Source: a virus | Lineage: Duplodnaviria; Caudoviricetes | Virus record (IMG/VR): IMGVR_UViG_2925282926_000001 | Span: 1-64,000 of that record | Length of the DNA: 64,000 bases | Strand: one strand, 5' to 3' | Shown: in pieces, positions 18,900 to 57,742 of the stretch | How the letters are laid out: each line of letters starts with the position of its first letter | Position numbering within the stretch: position 1 is the first letter of the stretch | Made by a program: the position numbers and the translations under genes | Notes under the pieces: generated by a model | What the model saw: the letters and a program-made list of their open reading frames with translations, nothing else | What the model was told of the DNA's origin: nothing | The model's database searches: none

Positions 18900-19274
18900 T
18901 CATTTGGTCACCGTCTTTCTTCTGGGTTTAGGCGCTGCTTTTAATCCGAGGCTGATCATTAATGGATGCTCCATCTGCTTCAAAATCTCAGGTGTGAGCG
19001 ACCCGAACTGGTAATCTAATCGGGTTTTGTCAATCGTCCGAATCTGCTCAAACATTACAACCGATGGTTTGCGCATCCCCTCTTTGATCCCGATAGGGAA
19101 GTGAGTCGGCATCAAGCGTTTGTCCTCACCATCTGTGATCGCTACAACAATGACTGTTGGGGAAAACTCATTGCCCACATCGTTCTGGATAACCAGACCC
19201 GGACGGTAACCCTGTTGTTCGCTCCCTTCGCCGTCTCCGTAATTGATCATGAACAGCCCACCGCGTTTGATCAT
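18900..19274 (-). CDS. PemK/MazF-family endoribonuclease
   Basis: GSEQQGYRPGLVIQNDVGN.FSPTVIV.AIT, EQIRTIDKTRL. Confidence 0.9.
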   Translation of the reverse strand: MIKRGGLFMINYGDGEGSEQQGYRPGLVIQNDVGNEFSPTVIVVAITDGEDKRLMPTHFPIGIKEGMRKPSVVMFEQIRTIDKTRLDYQFGSLTPEILKQMEHPLMISLGLKAAPKPRRKTVTK

Positions 19275-20057: not shown

Positions 20058-20087
20058 TTGACTTTTCATACGGTTTTGCCGTATACT
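20058..20087 (+). promoter_or_regulatory. P_RE-like sigmaA promoter, antisense through cro towards cI, with palindrome ATACGG-N5-CCGTAT
   Basis: TTGACT-18bp-TATACT; palindrome at 20068-20084. Confidence 0.6.
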
Positions 20088-20100
20088 TCTATTAAAGTTA

Positions 20101-20517
20101 TTCCTAGATTCTAAGAATTCTTAGCCAAAAAAATTTCCTTCGGGTCTAACTCAAGACCTTCAATCTTACATAAGAGTTCAACTTCATCTGCGCTCATCAT
20201 AGAAGTCCCATCCATCAAGCGATAAAAACGCTTTTCAGGTATACCAGCTTTTGCTGAGATAGACTTCATAGAAGTGCCGGATGTAAGGATGTGAGCACGA
20301 ATGCGTTTGATCAAAGGAGTCAGGTAAGGTTTGCTTTTATCCTCAGCAACTTGACTCATTAGGTCACCTCCAATTCTTAGGTATTCTGTGTGAATTCCTA
20401 ATTTCTAAGAATCCGTGAGTCAAATATAACTCCTAGTATCTAAGAATGCAACCCCCTTTTTAAAATTAATTTTCTGATTATCCGAAAAACTAAGAATGGT
20501 TTCCATGTTTCTAGGAC
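20101..20517. promoter_or_regulatory. Immunity operators (TTCCTAG-N3-CTAAGAA-like) and leftward lytic promoter
   Basis: Copies at 20101-20117, 20395-20411, 20430-20446, weaker 20501-20517; minus-strand TTGCAT-17-TATATT at 20451-20423 spans the third copy. Confidence 0.7.
20111..20359 (-). CDS. Cro-like XRE HTH protein
   Basis: SMKSISAKAGIPEKRFYRLMDG; divergent from cI, first gene of the early operon. Confidence 0.75.
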   Translation of the reverse strand: MSQVAEDKSKPYLTPLIKRIRAHILTSGTSMKSISAKAGIPEKRFYRLMDGTSMMSADEVELLCKIEGLELDPKEIFLAKNS

Positions 20518-20559: not shown

Positions 20560-20943
20560 ATGCTCAAGTTGTACAGTGAACGCCTAAAAGAAGCGCGTTT
20601 AAAGGCGGGTTTGACACAAATTCAAGTGAGAGATCATACGGGGATCAACAACAAGACATTGAGTGGATACGAGAACAAAATCAGTGAACCGGATTATGAA
20701 ACATTAAAAGCATTGTGCGACTTATATGGAGTTACAACGGATTGGGTTTTGGGACACACAAATAACCCCCACAGCAAGTTAACCGAGGCTGAGAGGGTTA
20801 TGGTTGAAAAAGTGGAATTGAACGATGATTCTTTCATCAAGGGAGATTTTACTTTTGACGGAAAGGAACTGACAGAGGAACAGAAGCGCAAGCTACAGGC
20901 TATGGCTCGTCTACTTCTGAGTCAGTATCAACAAGGGAAATAA
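20560..20943 (+). CDS. CI-like XRE repressor lacking an S24 autopeptidase domain
   Basis: RLKEARLKAGLTQ..V...TGINNKTLSGYEN..SEPD..TL..LCDLYGVTTDWVLG. Confidence 0.85.
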   Translation: MLKLYSERLKEARLKAGLTQIQVRDHTGINNKTLSGYENKISEPDYETLKALCDLYGVTTDWVLGHTNNPHSKLTEAERVMVEKVELNDDSFIKGDFTFDGKELTEEQKRKLQAMARLLLSQYQQGK

Positions 20944-21025
20944 GAAACTCATCAATCAACTTTTGGTTTTCTGGCGTATCGGCTGCAATGGATTTCAAAA
21001 AATGCTCGGCATCAATGCTGTTCAT
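20900..21025 (-). CDS. 41-aa acidic protein, candidate SOS-inducible antirepressor (not in ORF track)
   Basis: MNSIDAEHFLKSIAADTPENQKLIDEFLISLVDTDSEVDEP; GGGGG RBS; TATAAT at 21061-21056. Confidence 0.5.
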   Translation of the reverse strand: MNSIDAEHFLKSIAADTPENQKLIDEFLISLVDTDSEVDEP

Positions 21026-21063
21026 AAGGCAAGACCCCCGGTATGTAGTATTGTAATTATATA

Positions 21064-21077
21064 CGAACGATTGTTCC
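21064..21077. promoter_or_regulatory. LexA (SOS/Cheo) box
   Basis: CGAACGATTGTTCC fits the Bacillus consensus CGAAC-N4-GTTYC. Confidence 0.75.
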
Positions 21078-21116: not shown

Positions 21117-21344
21117 ATGGCGCTTACCTTCGGGAAGTGCCTGTTGCGCGACATCCGCATCCAAGCCGGTTACACTCAGGATCAACTATCTGAGGCACTG
21201 CTTGAAGTGTGCGGATTAAATGTATCCACCACTCTATTGTCCTTTTACGAGACTAACAAGCGACCCATCCCAAGCCTTACTATGCGCGGGATCTGCATTA
21301 TTCTCGGATGCAATGAAAAGGACATATACGAGTGGCCGATGTAG
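21117..21344 (+). CDS. Small XRE HTH regulator
   Basis: GGAGG RBS; LRDIRIQAGYTQDQLS...LLSFYETNKR. Confidence 0.8.
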   Translation: MALTFGKCLLRDIRIQAGYTQDQLSEALLEVCGLNVSTTLLSFYETNKRPIPSLTMRGICIILGCNEKDIYEWPM

Positions 21345-21562
21345 CGTAACAGGCCGGGGCATTTACTGCTCCACCCGGAGGTTTTCTTTACCCCGTTGTA
21401 AAGTTGATTAAACGTCAACAGGAAATCATGTTCCTATTTCCCATTTAACCCCACATCACAAGATTTGTAAATTAAAATTGGGTCGTCCGAATTGAATCCA
21501 TTCGACACCACCATTCGACAACATATTACATTAGACTTGTGCTATAGTTTATAATCGAACGC

Positions 21563-21604
21563 AAAAAAGAGGGGCCCCCGCATTACGACGGAGGCCCCTC
21601 TTTT
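21563..21604. terminator. Bidirectional intrinsic terminator ending the agr-like operon
   Basis: AAAAAAGAGGGGCCCCCG..CGGAGGCCCCTCTTTT. Confidence 0.7.
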
Positions 21605-21999
21605 CATTGGAGTATTGGAACAAGTTTTTGTTGTTGTTTAGTCGCAACAGATAGTTCTTTTTCCAGATCGGTGTATCCTCTTGCGGACATAGAGCATCGC
21701 AATTCGTTTATTCTCCGGAACTTTTCGAAGTATGCATAATATGGCTTTGTCTCAGTCCGCCTTACCTTCATCACATTAACCGAATTATGCCGGTCTACGT
21801 CCATGAAATTTCCACCGCTGTTATTCATAACCTCAGTCCAATGCTCCTTGCTTCCCACAAAATAATAGGTTGCATCGGAAGTGTAAAAAGCGACCTTCCT
21901 ATACGTTTTTATATAAGAAAGATACAGTATGTCGGCGATCTTAACCTGAATAACATCGGTTTTTCCTTTATGATCAGCCAGAAGTGATACGTATTCCAT
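21604..21999 (-). CDS. Stand-alone LytTR DNA-binding protein (no receiver domain)
   Basis: IQVKIADILYL...VAFYT...NFMDVDRHNSVNVMKV is a divergent LytTR signature; only 131 aa. Confidence 0.8.
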   Translation of the reverse strand: MEYVSLLADHKGKTDVIQVKIADILYLSYIKTYRKVAFYTSDATYYFVGSKEHWTEVMNNSGGNFMDVDRHNSVNVMKVRRTETKPYYAYFEKFRRINELRCSMSARGYTDLEKELSVATKQQQKLVPILQ

Positions 22000-22014
22000 A
22001 TATGTTGTCCTCCA

Positions 22015-22143
22015 TTATTTTTTAAGCAAGTGTTGTGGTGGCTTAGGGTTGTTTACGAAGATCAAGCTTGCTGGCATTACAGACAGAGCTGCTACTGCAC
22101 CCAATCCAGTTGCGATTGCACCATAGATAGCTGTTTTAAACAT
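22015..22143 (-). CDS. agrD: AgrD-like cyclic lactone autoinducer precursor (not in ORF track)
   Basis: MFKTAIYGAIATGLGAVAALSVMPA-SLIFV-NNPKPPQHLLKK: hydrophobic leader, Ser-initiated pentapeptide, P-x-P..L tail; GGAGGTG RBS; overlaps the agrB stop. Confidence 0.85.
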   Translation of the reverse strand: MFKTAIYGAIATGLGAVAALSVMPASLIFVNNPKPPQHLLKK

Positions 22144-22678
22144 GTTTGTCACCTCCCTTCATGAAATGTTCGTTGGCTACTAATGTCAGAGCTTGTACGA
22201 AAAATGCTATTGCTGCCATAGACGATCCGAACCAAAGGTTTGATGCAACGATCAAAAAGGACACGATTTTAAGGGCTGGATAGAACCTCTCCGGAATACG
22301 GGTCTGGTTTTCAATTCCTGTTGGTGCATAGAAAAGCATAATAAACATACTGATTACTGTAAGGATAACAGTCCACTCTGAACCAATACTGAACATAGAC
22401 AGTGCAGTTGCTGCACCAGCCGTTATGATTGCGCACCCCATGCTTGTCTGTAGGTGTACTCCCCCTGAGAACAAGCGTAGAAAGGCAAAGCATTTTAACA
22501 GCATTACTGCTTCATTCAAACGACCAGTTGCCAAGCCTGCCAATACTGTTAAAACGACCACTGAAACAAAATTAAGAATAATGATTAGCGAGTGCCGCAT
22601 GCTGTCTTCTGGTACTGGGTGATTCGGAACTACTGACTTGATATGACGCGCCATTCTCCCCGCCACTACCTCAATCAA
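22136..22678 (-). CDS. agrB: AgrB-family peptide-processing membrane protease
   Basis: LRLFSGGVH...C catalytic pattern, YAP motif, several TM segments. Confidence 0.9.
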   Translation of the reverse strand: MIEVVAGRMARHIKSVVPNHPVPEDSMRHSLIIILNFVSVVVLTVLAGLATGRLNEAVMLLKCFAFLRLFSGGVHLQTSMGCAIITAGAATALSMFSIGSEWTVILTVISMFIMLFYAPTGIENQTRIPERFYPALKIVSFLIVASNLWFGSSMAAIAFFVQALTLVANEHFMKGGDKHV

Positions 22679-23256
22679 CGTGCTTCACGATCCTTTCTGA
22701 ATGCATAGTACAGAAACAGTGCAGATGCTCCCCCGAAAAACAATATGTTAGCCCATGACTCTTGCACGTACATTGTGATTGCAGTGAGTACGAATGCCGT
22801 AATAATGACGGTCACGACAATAGCTTTCTCTCGGGGGAGTTTCAGTTTTTGATATGGCGCCTCGATGCCCAAGCCGAATTTGTAGAGGAGATATGAAGCT
22901 ATTAAAAACAGAATACTTGTCACAAGCTGTAGGAGCTCTCCGCCAATTTTTTCAAATAGCAATGCTTGTGCAACTCCGTAGGGAAAGAATCCACTACCGG
23001 ATATAATTATTGACCATAGGATCGGAAGCCGAACAATAGTTGCAAGTATCAGGACATAGAACATTAAGTTTATCACCACAGCTAGAAATCCCAGATCTAG
23101 CCCTCGTAAGAAATGACTCTGCATGCCCATGAGTACAGACACTGACAGTGCCTGCCAGATGAATTCCATTGGATTCTCCCTGTATAACACCATCATGAAT
23201 ATAAATACCGTCAGTACTTCTATTGTTGAAAACAACATAAACGTGACCAGTTCCAT
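22675..23256 (-). CDS. Multi-pass membrane protein resembling an AgrC sensor region without kinase domain
   Basis: About 6-7 hydrophobic helices, no H-box or ATPase motifs; coupled to agrB. Confidence 0.65.
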   Translation of the reverse strand: MELVTFMLFSTIEVLTVFIFMMVLYRENPMEFIWQALSVSVLMGMQSHFLRGLDLGFLAVVINLMFYVLILATIVRLPILWSIIISGSGFFPYGVAQALLFEKIGGELLQLVTSILFLIASYLLYKFGLGIEAPYQKLKLPREKAIVVTVIITAFVLTAITMYVQESWANILFFGGASALFLYYAFRKDREAR

Positions 23257-23271
23257 CGTGCCTTATCCCCT

Positions 23272-23586
23272 TTATTCTGGCTTGTCTTTGCTACGCCACT
23301 CTTCCATGCGCTCTTGGTACTCATCAATCGACGGTTTAAACCAGAACGGCCTTGTCCCAACCATAACGTCAGGCTCTGGGAACATCTTGTTTTTGCGCAC
23401 ATGATGCATGTTCTTTGGGTCTGCGCCAATCTGTTCTGCTACTTCCTTACTCCCCAGGAGAGGTGGGTACTTTTTACCACGTATGATCTGTCTGGACTCT
23501 TCTAACTCTTCGACCAGTGCAGCGATCCGTTCTCCGACCTCTCCTCCCAGTTGGTCCGCCAAATCTCGGTACTGATTCAAGGTCAA
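23272..23586 (-). CDS. AlpA/MerR-superfamily HTH DNA-binding protein, first gene of the agr-like operon
   Basis: LLGSKEVAEQIG...FPEPD..VGTRPFW; AGGAGG RBS before TTG. Confidence 0.7.
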   Translation of the reverse strand: MTLNQYRDLADQLGGEVGERIAALVEELEESRQIIRGKKYPPLLGSKEVAEQIGADPKNMHHVRKNKMFPEPDVMVGTRPFWFKPSIDEYQERMEEWRSKDKPE

Positions 23587-23628
23587 TGCTCATACCTCCT
23601 TAATTTTCCTGTTTGTTTGTCTGCCATA

Positions 23629-23657
23629 AATATACGGTAAAGCCGTATGTATTGCAA
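23629..23657 (-). promoter_or_regulatory. sigmaA promoter of the agr-like operon with ATACGG-N5-CCGTAT operator
   Basis: TTGCAA-17bp-TATATT; palindrome at 23632-23648. Confidence 0.7.
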
Positions 23658-23746: not shown

Positions 23747-23953
23747 ATGCGCTATTTACTTTGTTTCTTGCCACCACTTGCAGTATTGTCCTGTGGTAAA
23801 GTTGGTCAGTTCTTGCTTAGCTGTATCCTAACGCTATTCTTTTATGTTCCTGGTGTCATCCACGCCATATTGGTCGTTAACTCCTACAACGCAGATAAAC
23901 GTAACGACAAGCTTATCCGCGCCATTCAACATCAGCAGCGTCCACCAGTTTAA
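23747..23953 (+). CDS. YqaE/Pmp3-family small membrane protein
   Basis: MRYLLCFLPPLAVLSCGK..Q..L..ILTL..YVPGVIHA. Confidence 0.85.
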   Translation: MRYLLCFLPPLAVLSCGKVGQFLLSCILTLFFYVPGVIHAILVVNSYNADKRNDKLIRAIQHQQRPPV

Positions 23954-24012: not shown

Positions 24013-24348
24013 TTAAGTGGTAGCCGACATAATATCAGCGATTTTTATATACTTCCAATCTTTATCAGGAAAAACAAGTTTGATTTCCATTCGAACCGTG
24101 TTTACAACAGATACAACACCCTCATACATCTTATCCTCTATTGGATCGAATTCAGTGATCTGTATACGTAACCGTTGATGAAAGGAATCATTTATTGCCC
24201 CTTGAATTAATTGCATCTCCTGTTCATCCAGAATCGGTTTTTCCTTCTCCAATGCTTTCGCTTGATGCTCAAGCCAGGCCTCCCTGTGCTCAGGCAATAT
24301 CATCCGAGATGACTCAAACAATCCGTTTCCCGCCAACTTGCTACTCAT
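24013..24348 (-). CDS. YolD-like protein
   Basis: KLAGNGLFESSRMILPEHRE...KPILDEQE. Confidence 0.85.
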   Translation of the reverse strand: MSSKLAGNGLFESSRMILPEHREAWLEHQAKALEKEKPILDEQEMQLIQGAINDSFHQRLRIQITEFDPIEDKMYEGVVSVVNTVRMEIKLVFPDKDWKYIKIADIMSATT

Positions 24349-24361
24349 AATAAGCGCCCCC

Positions 24362-24661
24362 TTAGTATTGAGTCCAATAGTCAGTATTACTGTTGTTGAC
24401 TGGCGGCTTCCTGTGCTCAACCTTAGGACGTTCTCCCTCTCGTTCCCAACCTTCCAAAATGACTAGATTAGCCGTATCCGACTTATCCTCCCAATGTATG
24501 TATCGTGCAGTTATTAGAGCCTCCAGTGCGTCCATAACGTCTGCTTTATACTTGCCTGTTTTAACGGTTAATTCGTGGACAGTAGGAAAACGCCGCCGTC
24601 CGCTTTTGTAGTTATATAAGATCCGTAACACCTTTCGCTCGTAATCAGATAACATATTCAT
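24362..24661 (-). CDS. SOS-regulated winged-helix protein
   Basis: LSDYERKVLRILYN...RFPTVHEL..KTG; AGGAGG RBS. Confidence 0.65.
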   Translation of the reverse strand: MNMLSDYERKVLRILYNYKSGRRRFPTVHELTVKTGKYKADVMDALEALITARYIHWEDKSDTANLVILEGWEREGERPKVEHRKPPVNNSNTDYWTQY

Positions 24662-24673
24662 CCCTCCTGAATA

Positions 24674-24710
24674 AGAACAACTGTTTGTATTATATGCGAA
24701 CAATCGTTCG
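24674..24710. promoter_or_regulatory. Two LexA boxes
   Basis: AGAACAACTGTTTG (24674-24687) and CGAACAATCGTTCG (24697-24710). Confidence 0.75.
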
Positions 24711-24770
24711 TTATTCAAGAAGAAAATAACTCCATCAGCGATAGGCCAATGGAGTTAGAGTGTTGCCCAT

Positions 24771-53573: not shown

Positions 53574-54245
53574 TTATCCAACATTCTTTATGAGGTCTTC
53601 ACTGTTGTTCCGCACATTACCGACTTCCTTCGGTACCTCGTAAGCTCGCATTTCTGACGCTCGATACGGCTTGAGCATTCCGAGCAATGACTCGACATCA
53701 TCATTATCTTTTCCAAGCCACTCAGCCTCATCCTCGGGCCGCAGTATAACCGGCATACGATTATGAATGTCTTCCATGAGACTGTTTGGCTCCGTTGTAA
53801 TAATTGTACATGTGCTCAGCTTGTTTCCGTCCGGATCCGTCCAGGTATCATACAGACCAGCAAGCGAGAATATACGGTCATCCTTCATCAAGATGCGCAT
53901 TGGCTGCTTTGCCGTTCCTTCTTTCTTCCATTCATAAAATCCGTTCGTGGGGATGATGCAGCGTTTGGAACTGATCAGACGTTTGAAGGCTGGCTTCTCT
54001 GCCAGTGTCTCGGCTCGAGCATTGATCATCTTATTCCCGATCTTGTCATCCTTTGCCCAAACGGGTACCAGGCCCCATCGGAGCGAACCCAATCGATTTC
54101 CTTCCTTGCTGCCTATAATTGTCGGGATGTACTGCATGGGTGCTGCGTTATAATTAGGCTTGTACTCAAATCCTTCAGAAACGGAAGCATAGTACCTGTC
54201 CATTATTGCGTCTAAAGGGTCAGTAATTGTGAATCTACCACACAT
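53574..54245 (-). CDS. SRAP/HMCES-family abasic-site protein (YoqW/YedK-like)
   Basis: MCGRF start, WGLVP.W, INARAET, FYEW, IHNRMPVIL. Confidence 0.95.
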   Translation of the reverse strand: MCGRFTITDPLDAIMDRYYASVSEGFEYKPNYNAAPMQYIPTIIGSKEGNRLGSLRWGLVPVWAKDDKIGNKMINARAETLAEKPAFKRLISSKRCIIPTNGFYEWKKEGTAKQPMRILMKDDRIFSLAGLYDTWTDPDGNKLSTCTIITTEPNSLMEDIHNRMPVILRPEDEAEWLGKDNDDVESLLGMLKPYRASEMRAYEVPKEVGNVRNNSEDLIKNVG

Positions 54246-54281
54246 ACAAAGCACCTCCTGTATTGTCTTTACAATATATAA

Positions 54282-55139
54282 TCACACTATAAATTGATCA
54301 AACACTGGGATACGTAGCAAGCCGGATTTGGTCCAGTTTCGTATTTTGACCCTGGCTTGTATCCTTGGCTCCAGGTAAACGTTGTTCTTGTCCTCACCAG
54401 TAACGAGCTGCTGGCATACTCCACGAAACGCCTGCTTATGTTTAGGACTTGGGCCATGCTCGATGATTCCTACCGGACGCATCTTGCCTGACGGATCTGG
54501 AACAGCAGCAAGCCACCCGAATTCAGACTTTTTGTATCCTGTAATGAACACATCAGCATATGACCAGTTAATGACCTTCTGCCACTCTCTGGACCGCCTG
54601 CTGACGTACTGACTGTCCTTGTGCTTGCCAACCACACCCTCCATACCCATTGCCTCTATTTGGGCGTATAGTGCCTCTCCTGCGCCTTCAATATGCGGTA
54701 CCACTCCAAAGCTATTAGACGGTAGTTGGAGCCCTAGCAGAATTGCCTTGCGCTCTATAAGAGGTAGTTTGCGGAGATCCTGGCCTCGAAAAAAGAGAAT
54801 ATCAAATATGGCGAACGTAGCCGGCAATGTCTTGGTGAGCTGCTGAACCTTCGAGTGTTGCCGAGTGCTGAACCGGCTCATGACTGCCTCAAAGTCGTTC
54901 AATCCTGTCTCTGGATCGGTGCAAGCAACCTCTCCGTCCAAGATAATGTCAGAGTCAAAGGGCAGTAGTAATTCAGGGTACTGCCGAGTGCAATCATTGT
55001 TGTGGCGTGTATATAACCGGACGTTGCCGGATTGTTGCGAATATATAAGCCGGTGACCGTCTACCTTCGGTTCAAAGATGTAATCCGAATGCGAGAATGG
55101 ACCCGGTGCTGTTTCAAGTAACATAGGGCTAATAAACAT
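54282..55139 (-). CDS. ATP-dependent DNA ligase
   Basis: EPKVDGHR, LDGEV, FDIL, EGVVGK, W.KV, LR.P.F. Confidence 0.9.
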   Translation of the reverse strand: MFISPMLLETAPGPFSHSDYIFEPKVDGHRLIYSQQSGNVRLYTRHNNDCTRQYPELLLPFDSDIILDGEVACTDPETGLNDFEAVMSRFSTRQHSKVQQLTKTLPATFAIFDILFFRGQDLRKLPLIERKAILLGLQLPSNSFGVVPHIEGAGEALYAQIEAMGMEGVVGKHKDSQYVSRRSREWQKVINWSYADVFITGYKKSEFGWLAAVPDPSGKMRPVGIIEHGPSPKHKQAFRGVCQQLVTGEDKNNVYLEPRIQARVKIRNWTKSGLLRIPVFDQFIV

Positions 55140-55202
55140 AAAAAAACACCTCAACCCAATTATAGCGGTTTGCTACAAAGGATTGAGACGGTAAGTTTTG
55201 GT

Positions 55203-56204: not shown

Positions 56205-57386
56205 ATGCCTGTCTATAAGGATGAGAATGTAAAGAAAAATCCGTGGTTTTATGTGCTGGAAATTGGCAAGGGGAAAAATAGAAAGCGGACTAAAAAGCGC
56301 GGTTTTAAAACAAAGAAAGAAGCTCAGGCTGCACTTGTTGAAGCCGAAAACAACGTTAACAACGGTACGTTTATAAAACGTGAAAAGACACTCCTTCCGG
56401 ATCTGATGAATCTATGGCTCAAGACCAAAGAACACTCTATAGCGGATGTCACATACAAAACTTATGGACGACACATATCTTTGCACATAAATGACTATTT
56501 CGAAGATTTCCAAGCAATGGATTTGACTGACGAGGACTGTCTTGATTTCATCAAGCATCTGCGTGTTGAGAAGGAACTCGCTTCTCGATCAGTTAAAGAT
56601 GTATTCAAAGTGTTACGCTCGGCTCTTGATTGGGCTGTGCTGAAGAGTAAGCTTCAAAGAAATGTTACCCGCCTCATTGATATGCCAGCAGTCGAGCGTC
56701 AAGAAATCATGGTCTGGAACGCTGATCAGGTTCGGGAGTTTGATAAGCACATACAAGAACATCACGATTATGTTGCCTTCCTTCTTGCTTATGGGGCTGG
56801 CTTGAGACAATCAGAAGCATTGGCACTCAGATTCAAGGATGTCAATTACGAAAGCAAAACTATATCTGTTGTTCAAACCTTATCACATGATGGCAAGAAG
56901 ATCAGAACGGGTGCAAAAACTGCCTCAGGAACGAGATTGGTTTCTGTGGATGATAAAATCATCAAGGAGATTCAAAAGAGAAAGCGGGTGGTTGCTGCTG
57001 AGAAGTTAAAAGCGGGTGGAGTATACCAAGACAACGACCTGATTGTGGCAACCTCTGTAGGAACTCCTGTTACACCCAGAAACCTACTCAGGACGTTCTA
57101 TAGATACATGGAGAAGCTGGAGATACCAAAGATCACAGTCCACGATCTGAGACATACACATGCCACTCTGTTACTCAAGCAAGGTGAGCATCCGAAGATC
57201 GTTCAGGAGCGACTTGGACATGCCAGCGTTAAAATAACAATTGATCTTTATAGCCATGTTTTACCGAATATGCAGAAAGAGACTGCGGAACGATTTGGGG
57301 ATTTCTTGTTTGGTACCAATTTAGGCACCAAAAATACGAATGGCACCATTTCGGCACCAGACACCGAAAATAGAGAACTTATTTAG
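56205..57386 (+). CDS. int: Tyrosine integrase with N-terminal arm-binding domain
   Basis: KRGFKTKKEA, GLRQSEAL.L, KT, HDLRHTHAT, RLGH, Y. Confidence 0.95.
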   Translation: MPVYKDENVKKNPWFYVLEIGKGKNRKRTKKRGFKTKKEAQAALVEAENNVNNGTFIKREKTLLPDLMNLWLKTKEHSIADVTYKTYGRHISLHINDYFEDFQAMDLTDEDCLDFIKHLRVEKELASRSVKDVFKVLRSALDWAVLKSKLQRNVTRLIDMPAVERQEIMVWNADQVREFDKHIQEHHDYVAFLLAYGAGLRQSEALALRFKDVNYESKTISVVQTLSHDGKKIRTGAKTASGTRLVSVDDKIIKEIQKRKRVVAAEKLKAGGVYQDNDLIVATSVGTPVTPRNLLRTFYRYMEKLEIPKITVHDLRHTHATLLLKQGEHPKIVQERLGHASVKITIDLYSHVLPNMQKETAERFGDFLFGTNLGTKNTNGTISAPDTENRELI

Positions 57387-57728: not shown

Positions 57729-57742
57729 AGAACAAACGTTCT
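57729..57742. promoter_or_regulatory. LexA box just downstream of a TTGTAT..TATACT promoter
   Basis: AGAACAAACGTTCT. Confidence 0.65.

Follow-up and report, generated by a model that had tools for sequence, protein, structure and literature searches.

Arbitrium is the characterised system in which a phage-made peptide guides lysis-lysogeny decisions, its receptor being the RRNPP/TPR protein AimR and its signal a linear, imported hexapeptide. Here we describe a different arrangement, an Agr-like cassette within a 64,000-nucleotide stretch of DNA (the window; positions 1 to 64,000 of the IMG/VR virus record IMGVR_UViG_2925282926_000001, Caudoviricetes), in which genes for a kinase-less membrane protein (M), an AgrB peptidase, an AgrD-like precursor and a receiver-less LytTR protein (Y) lie beside a phage repressor gene, cI. 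The cassette seems to join a signal of the Agr type to an output of the arbitrium type, and we put at about even the chance that M senses the peptide and controls Y, and through Y a small putative antirepressor, X, in combination with the SOS response.

In extended arbitrium loci (aimR-aimP-aimX-aimC-aimL; phi106, phiW23), the short repressor AimC is bound by AimX, whose expression is under AimR and LexA control (bioRxiv 10.1101/2025.11.23.689978); LexA integration in arbitrium is also the subject of 10.1101/2021.09.20.460909. Agr-type signalling is found in the canonical agrBDCA loci of S. aureus and P. polymyxa (Pp-AIP), the characterised P. polymyxa system being a canonical agrABCD (PMC12180512), and in phage phiCDHM1, where agr3 has a kinase but no LytTR protein. 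LytTR Regulatory Systems such as HdrRM and BrsRM (PMC6193735) join a receiver-less LytTR protein to a non-enzymatic membrane protein. A 2014 paper on phages Abouo, Davies and Emery (PMC3901668) had pointed out agrB, a possible agrD and membrane proteins that lack a HATPase domain, but did not recognise the LytTR gene. These Brevibacillus phages (gp44-47 in Abouo) and the P. larvae phages Harrison and Paisley have the same order of M, agrB, peptide and a LytTR-fold protein of ~120 amino acids (aa) in their lysogeny region, and M is homologous (E 1e-35 to 1e-44); phages in culture that carry the cassette include Abouo, Davies, Emery and Harrison. The Abouo-type cassettes differ in that most of their peptides have Lys, not Ser or Cys, near the ring position, and homologs of X and of a 75-aa helix-turn-helix (HTH) gene that accompanies the present cassette were not detected in these phages. 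The cassette itself is neither new nor phage-specific; it is the antirepressor layout that makes the idea of phage communication specific. No functional study of a kinase-free cassette was found in the literature searched, most subscription papers lying outside that coverage.

A kinase-free Agr-like operon

An earlier note, made from the letters of this DNA alone, had read five leftward genes as one operon with its own promoter and terminator, and this outline held. All five open reading frames (ORFs) were confirmed on the minus strand, each with a plausible ribosome-binding site: a 104-aa HTH protein (23272-23586), M (193 aa, 22675-23256), AgrB (22136-22678), the 42-aa precursor (22015-22143) and Y (131 aa, 21604-21999). 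The middle genes overlap as described, by 4 bp between M and agrB and by 8 bp between agrB and agrD. A domain search of the whole 123-kb record from which the window is taken found no HATPase_c or Response_reg domain, in agreement with the proposed absence of a histidine kinase and response regulator.

Among the individual parts, AgrB has clear profile support (PF04647, E 2.5e-16). Its R68, H75 and C82 are invariant across 24 diverse homologs, and the His-Cys spacing equals that of the S. aureus AgrB dyad, His77/Cys84 (PMC10482373). The precursor, in turn, had no hidden Markov model (HMM) match. The name AgrD is given for its place in the operon, its S-x4-x2-PxxP motif and the presence after agrB, in 123 of 124 M-AgrB loci, of a recognisable homologous precursor, in a few cases by weak scores. 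The ring predicted by analogy is a Ser-lactone, SLIFV, ahead of NNPKPP, with the ring Ser at -7 relative to PKPP. Most members of the family have Ser or Cys at or beside -7 before a PxxP-like tail, and a Lys-type subgroup stands apart.

M had been described as a protein of about six or seven transmembrane segments, and its predicted fold has seven helices (predicted local distance difference test score, pLDDT, 83). In an ESM Atlas structure search the model matched the membrane part of GHKL (HATPase_c_5) kinases over 190 residues with a template modelling score of 0.64, so that M is likely an AgrC-like sensor domain lacking the kinase; since predicted models stand on both sides of the comparison, this identity is likely rather than proven. 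No profile homology was seen between M and local AgrC N-termini (hhalign 1.3%), no clear solved fold was returned by Foldseek or VIA-align (best Z 7.6), and Protein Data Bank sequence searches with M and Y gave no matches. The family is stand-alone, the longest member among the best 150 matches having 238 aa, and a search for fused or longer forms found none, which is weak as evidence; together with the GHKL-like predicted fold, these lengths bear out the kinase-free wiring that had been proposed. M is presumed to be the receptor of the peptide.

The LytTR assignment of Y, and its lack of a receiver, were upheld by several converging comparisons. Y scored 21.6 bits against PF04397, just below the cut-off of 22.6, aligned with the C-terminal domains of AgrA at 97% in hhalign, and received support for a LytTR fold from the ESM Atlas search; its top Foldseek matches were ComE/AgrA, although weak, and its predicted model is of low confidence (pLDDT 56). 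Within the Y family, D69 is invariant at the position of AgrA His200, Arg occupies the N201 DNA-contact position (R70) in 91% of members, the R233-equivalent is variable, and the median net charge is 0.

Compared with canonical agr, the cassette has the catalytic His/Cys of AgrB, an AgrD-type precursor, a LytTR fold and what is modelled as an AgrC-like membrane fold. It departs from that system in having no kinase domain in M, no receiver in Y and a predicted Ser lactone, and the operon promoter lacks 9-bp repeats 12 bp apart. The parallel that the earlier note drew with LytTR Regulatory Systems extends to the receiver-less LytTR protein and the non-enzymatic membrane protein, but not to membership, which we reject. 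The membrane families are unrelated, with DUF3021 or DUF2154 in 0 of 133 M homologs; M precedes Y; peptide genes are built in; and there are no autoregulatory direct repeats. Upstream of the -35, 9-bp repeats 11-13 bp apart (period 20-23) occurred in 0.02-0.06 of 90 promoter regions, against 0.04-0.06 of controls.

Also as in canonical agr, the presumed receptor, AgrB and the peptide vary together. Between loci L005 (ring SLIFV) and L009 (SLVFV), M is 63% and AgrB 65% identical while Y is 98% identical; between L009 and L010, which share a ring, M and AgrB are 93% and 91% identical and Y 77%. By these sequence comparisons, M, AgrB and peptide are exchanged as a block, independently of Y, among close phages. 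Partial correlations with the ring were 0.39 for M, 0.25 for AgrB and -0.31 for Y, values that are indicative only, as the pairs are non-independent. The co-variation of ring and membrane protein that had been predicted is therefore seen, the ring following M and AgrB and not the LytTR protein. This pattern fits M as the receptor, although adjacency alone could contribute to it.

The operon is headed by a promoter-like sequence, TTGCAA-17-TATATT (23657-23629, minus strand), in line with the claimed sigmaA promoter. Such sites are no commoner than in shuffled sequence; this copy is nevertheless conserved in relatives, in loci carrying the 104-aa HTH gene. That gene, Xis/AlpA-like (phrog_597, E 4e-10), is optional in the family, standing directly upstream of M in 26 loci, and its product is probably an autoregulator. 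The promoter spacer contains a palindrome, ATACGG-N5-CCGTAT (23632-23648), a candidate operator of the 104-aa protein, whose sole other copy in positions 1-58000 lies just downstream of cro at 20068-20084, adjoining a rightward promoter-like site at 20058-20087; this recurrence hints that the 104-aa protein connects the cassette to the early operon. A de novo motif search upstream of M returned only an AT-rich signal. At the other end, the terminator that had been claimed is a hairpin at 21561-21603 (-33.6 kcal/mol, z -5.6), strong and probably bidirectional.

The interval between lytTR and the repressor gene

From the lytTR stop to the cI stop we measured 661 bp, close to the ~650 bp given before, and the features within this interval are additions to the earlier note, which omitted them. 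The cI gene (20560-20943, plus strand) encodes a cI/AimC-like repressor of 127 aa that consists of an HTH only; as it is short and has no S24 autocleavage domain, it probably needs an antirepressor. ORF X (20900-21025, minus strand) encodes a 41-aa acidic protein, overlaps the 3' end of cI antisense by 44 bp, and is, by analogy, a candidate AimX-like antirepressor. It carries a coding signature, with changes by codon position of 34/16/87 and 55 synonymous against 46 other changes. In L091, L102 and L142 a different small ORF occupies the position of X, before a different repressor; AimX likewise varies with AimC. Upstream of X, at 21056-21077, lie a leftward TATAAT and the sequence GAAC-N4-GTTC (21065-21076), which we take to be a LexA-type SOS box.

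Just beyond the operon terminator, a predicted output promoter, TTTACA-17-TTAAAT (21443-21471, minus strand), points across the 75-aa XRE-type HTH gene (21117-21344, plus strand, convergent on lytTR) to X. An imperfect palindrome of the ATTC-N6-8-GAAT type (21476-21493, minus strand), the candidate site of Y, lies just upstream of the -35, and two TGTCGAA boxes (21501-21520, minus strand) lie 49 and 36 bp upstream of it; the boxes are identical to what we take to be the 0A-box consensus of Spo0A. Boxes, palindrome and promoter are conserved in ~20 prophage loci, the first box being mostly 47-50 bp from the -35 and at times 38 or 60 bp. The combination of palindrome and -35 was seen after Y in 19 of the 73 de-duplicated loci, where shuffles gave a mean of 0.84, for a pattern taken post hoc from these loci, and in 7 of 9 loci fetched later, near-duplicates among them. 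An inverted palindrome of the same type follows lytTR in distant chromosomal loci at tdk-sda.

These features give the locus the layout of extended arbitrium: signalling genes, a terminator, a LexA box, a small ORF downstream of that box overlapping the end of a short repressor, then a divergent cro (cro/AimL-like HTH, 20111-20359, minus strand) that heads the early and replication genes. As in that system, the HTH repressor (80-140 aa there) has no autocleavage domain and is convergent on the signalling genes, and the 41 aa of X fall within the 29-80 aa of its small ORF. Unlike arbitrium, the place of aimRP is taken by the Agr-like cassette, with a cyclic AgrD-type peptide (as predicted), a membrane sensor and a LytTR protein; no ORF for an RRNPP/TPR AimR or a linear AimP lies between the lysis genes and cI, the ORFs there being small or otherwise assigned. 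A promoter follows the terminator here, whereas AimR acts by antitermination, and the 75-aa HTH gene is extra.

The linkage of the cassette to cI, predicted from this single locus, proved tight in the surrounding phage clade. When loci were fetched by cI similarity alone, nine had a cI identity of >=61%; X, the 75-aa HTH gene and Y were present in 9/9 and the full cassette in 8/9. The rings of these phages differ (SLIFV, SLVFV and SFWYI), and the module is retained in phages with differing tails and lysins. Six more distant HTH loci from the same fetch had neither X nor AgrB.

Taken together, these data would be accommodated by the following scheme. AgrB would cyclise the precursor to a Ser-lactone, probably c[SLIFV], that accumulates outside infected or lysogenic cells. 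M would bind the peptide and alter the availability of Y through contact rather than phosphorylation, and Y would act at the promoter just beyond the operon terminator. The transcript from the promoter at 21443-21471 would run over the 75-aa HTH gene and the LexA box into X, which may act as a small antirepressor against the non-cleavable cI. Low peptide together with LexA cleavage would favour lysis; high peptide would favour lysogeny, by analogy with arbitrium.

Distribution in Paenibacillaceae and competing readings

Of 401 Paenibacillaceae genomes, 268 have AgrB (458 matches) and 257 have M (454 matches), the two co-tracking per genome, and 94 of the 98 Y-positive genomes also have M, against 64% of all genomes. 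The order M-agrB-peptide-Y is near-fixed in 120 fetched loci; the ten of these in which AgrB occurs without M are canonical loci with a GHKL kinase. The sample is weighted to top-scoring matches on large contigs, prophage labels were assigned manually, and the M tree is a quick version. With that scope, ~16-18 of 110 sampled M loci lie inside recognisable prophages and most lie outside them, so the cassette is not phage-specific. Chromosomal clades are stable at tdk/dinB-sda (15 loci) and at gltB, and others stand at tRNA or rsmD insertion sites. On the M tree, prophage and chromosomal copies are interleaved, with 14 label changes of which at least 9 are forced. The interleaving and the mostly non-prophage locations identify the cassette as a mobile Paenibacillaceae module rather than a phage-only one.

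Several variants deserve mention. In the tdk-sda clade (L036, L038, L039, L044, L046, L048, L049, L054, L058, L060-L066), sda (PF08970) directly follows lytTR and the peptides are Lys-type, with no ring Ser or Cys; this is one example of a cassette domesticated by a chromosome. Six loci (L092, L120, L091, L100, L103, L082) retain M and Y without a working agrB, two of them with no space for a peptide, and are possibly listening-only versions. In four SPbeta-like prophages (L041, L047, L053, L057) the cassette comes immediately after the gene for a probable master repressor of 339 aa, with a tRNA-Met nearby. In L040, L055 and L059 a divergent GHKL kinase lies 220-494 bp from M, a possible exception to the kinase-free wiring. 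Phage Harrison has an annotated toxin gene ~2.8 kb upstream of the cassette (L002, 1-2553).

A number of observations weigh against control of X by the cassette, beginning with the small share of sampled loci that lie in prophages. The promoter pattern after lytTR is absent in 54 of 73 de-duplicated loci, and ~25 of 106 genome cassettes have no adjacent Y. X has a TATAAT of its own next to the LexA box and could therefore be an ordinary SOS antirepressor that takes no input from the cassette. A transcript from the output promoter would have to pass the 75-aa gene and a weak hairpin to reach X. Host Spo0A is suggested by the TGTCGAA boxes, and the palindrome is not a usual LytTR site. Furthermore, the nine cI-linked loci are one related clade, four of them repeating or nearly repeating loci of the main sample, so that the linkage may reflect shared ancestry. 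In favour of the proposed control counts the occurrence of the palindrome and -35 after Y in two distant branches.

If X is independent of the cassette, M, Y and the peptide might instead form a lysogenic-conversion module that tunes host physiology, for instance sporulation timing via sda or Spo0A-linked genes, and rides beside a separate LexA-X-cI SOS switch. The -10 that X possesses beside the LexA box keeps this idea alive, and the mostly chromosomal distribution, with fixed clades at tdk/dinB-sda, gltB and rsmD, the mixing of prophage and chromosomal copies on the M tree and the 0A-like boxes nearby all suit it. We nevertheless think this main rival unlikely, if deserving of real weight, as the cassette stays with cI and X in 8-9 of 9 loci whose virion modules differ, the conserved promoter that follows Y is directed into X and not into a host gene, and many chromosomal copies at tRNA and rsmD sites resemble captured phage ends. 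The same boxes, at their conserved spacing, would also suit a peptide read in trans through a host kinase and the Spo0A phosphorelay, with M modulating a host protein, Y as an adaptor and the X-ward promoter under Spo0A~P. The neutral median charge of Y, its Asp at the AgrA His200 position and its variable R233-equivalent are consistent with such a route, as are the three M loci with a divergent GHKL kinase within 500 bp. This route is improbable, however, given the Arg that Y has at the N201 DNA-contact position in 91% of members, the persistence of M-Y pairs without agrB in six loci and the lack of a linked kinase in the remaining ~105.

Two further explanations were weighed. The earlier note had offered as its alternative that the peptide jams or mimics host Agr signalling; M would then be a decoy receptor, for which its modelled resemblance to the AgrC sensor domain and the presence of canonical agr in some Paenibacillus (PMC12180512; 10/120 loci) could be cited. 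Three carrier genomes with close relatives of the cassette, however, have AgrB only beside M, and canonical agr makes up a minority of AgrB matches, with rings that are Cys-based and different. As a main role, jamming is rejected on the evidence of the carrier genomes, and we regard it as very improbable altogether. Equally remote is superinfection exclusion or a toxin-immunity pair, in which the cyclic peptide would harm non-lysogens and M would protect: the cassette does sit between lysis and immunity genes, the usual location of morons, and M is duplicated in Davies and Emery, but there was no PADLOC match, and Y and the conserved promoter would be left unexplained.

We return, then, to sensing by M with output through Y and X. 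Its broader form, a non-arbitrium phage communication system with a cyclic lactone, a kinase-less sensor, a bare LytTR protein and an arbitrium-like LexA-gated output, belonging to a new phosphorylation-free class of quorum sensing captured repeatedly by Paenibacillaceae chromosomes, we rate at slightly below an even chance. If true, it would be a second phage peptide system, with unrelated chemistry and receptor and the same antirepressor output; the sensing module would then be swappable, and phage communication would have evolved more than once. In addition, a cassette that occurs in about two-thirds of the searched Paenibacillaceae genomes would amount to Agr-type signalling with no phosphorylation step in its reading, a point relevant to the sensing of orphan agrBD loci. 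X and the output promoter offer a direct reporter assay.

Prophage setting and neighbouring genes

The window takes up the first 64 kb of a provirus record of 123 kb, which contains two tandem prophages, both at one tRNA-Ala gene. The first is bounded by repeats at 2337 and 57433 (span 2337-57507) and the second extends to about 122860-122900. With M 88% identical to a membrane protein of P. pabuli, a Paenibacillus is the probable host. The first prophage carries the cassette, with the lysis genes on one side and the repressor on the other. The integrase (56205-57386) is 35 kb from cI and the cassette, which places the opening of the prophage between the terminase side and the late regulator.

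The gene immediately upstream of the cassette, on the other strand, encodes a small membrane protein of the Pmp3 family (23747-23953). Beyond it, at 24013-24718, a second LexA-type box (at 24698) stands in front of a YolD-like gene and one for an HTH-like protein of 118 aa; a third such box is found at 57730. The early operon includes a PemK/MazF-like gene (18900-19274) that is kept in relatives (PF02452 in L005, L006 and L009); MazEF participates in the arbitrium decisions of SPbeta. Just beyond the left attachment repeat, 1-1158 matches LmuA of Lamassu (E 2e-47). Finally, between integrase and terminase, 53574-55154 holds what appear, as judged by eye, to be SRAP-like and ATP-dependent ligase-like genes.

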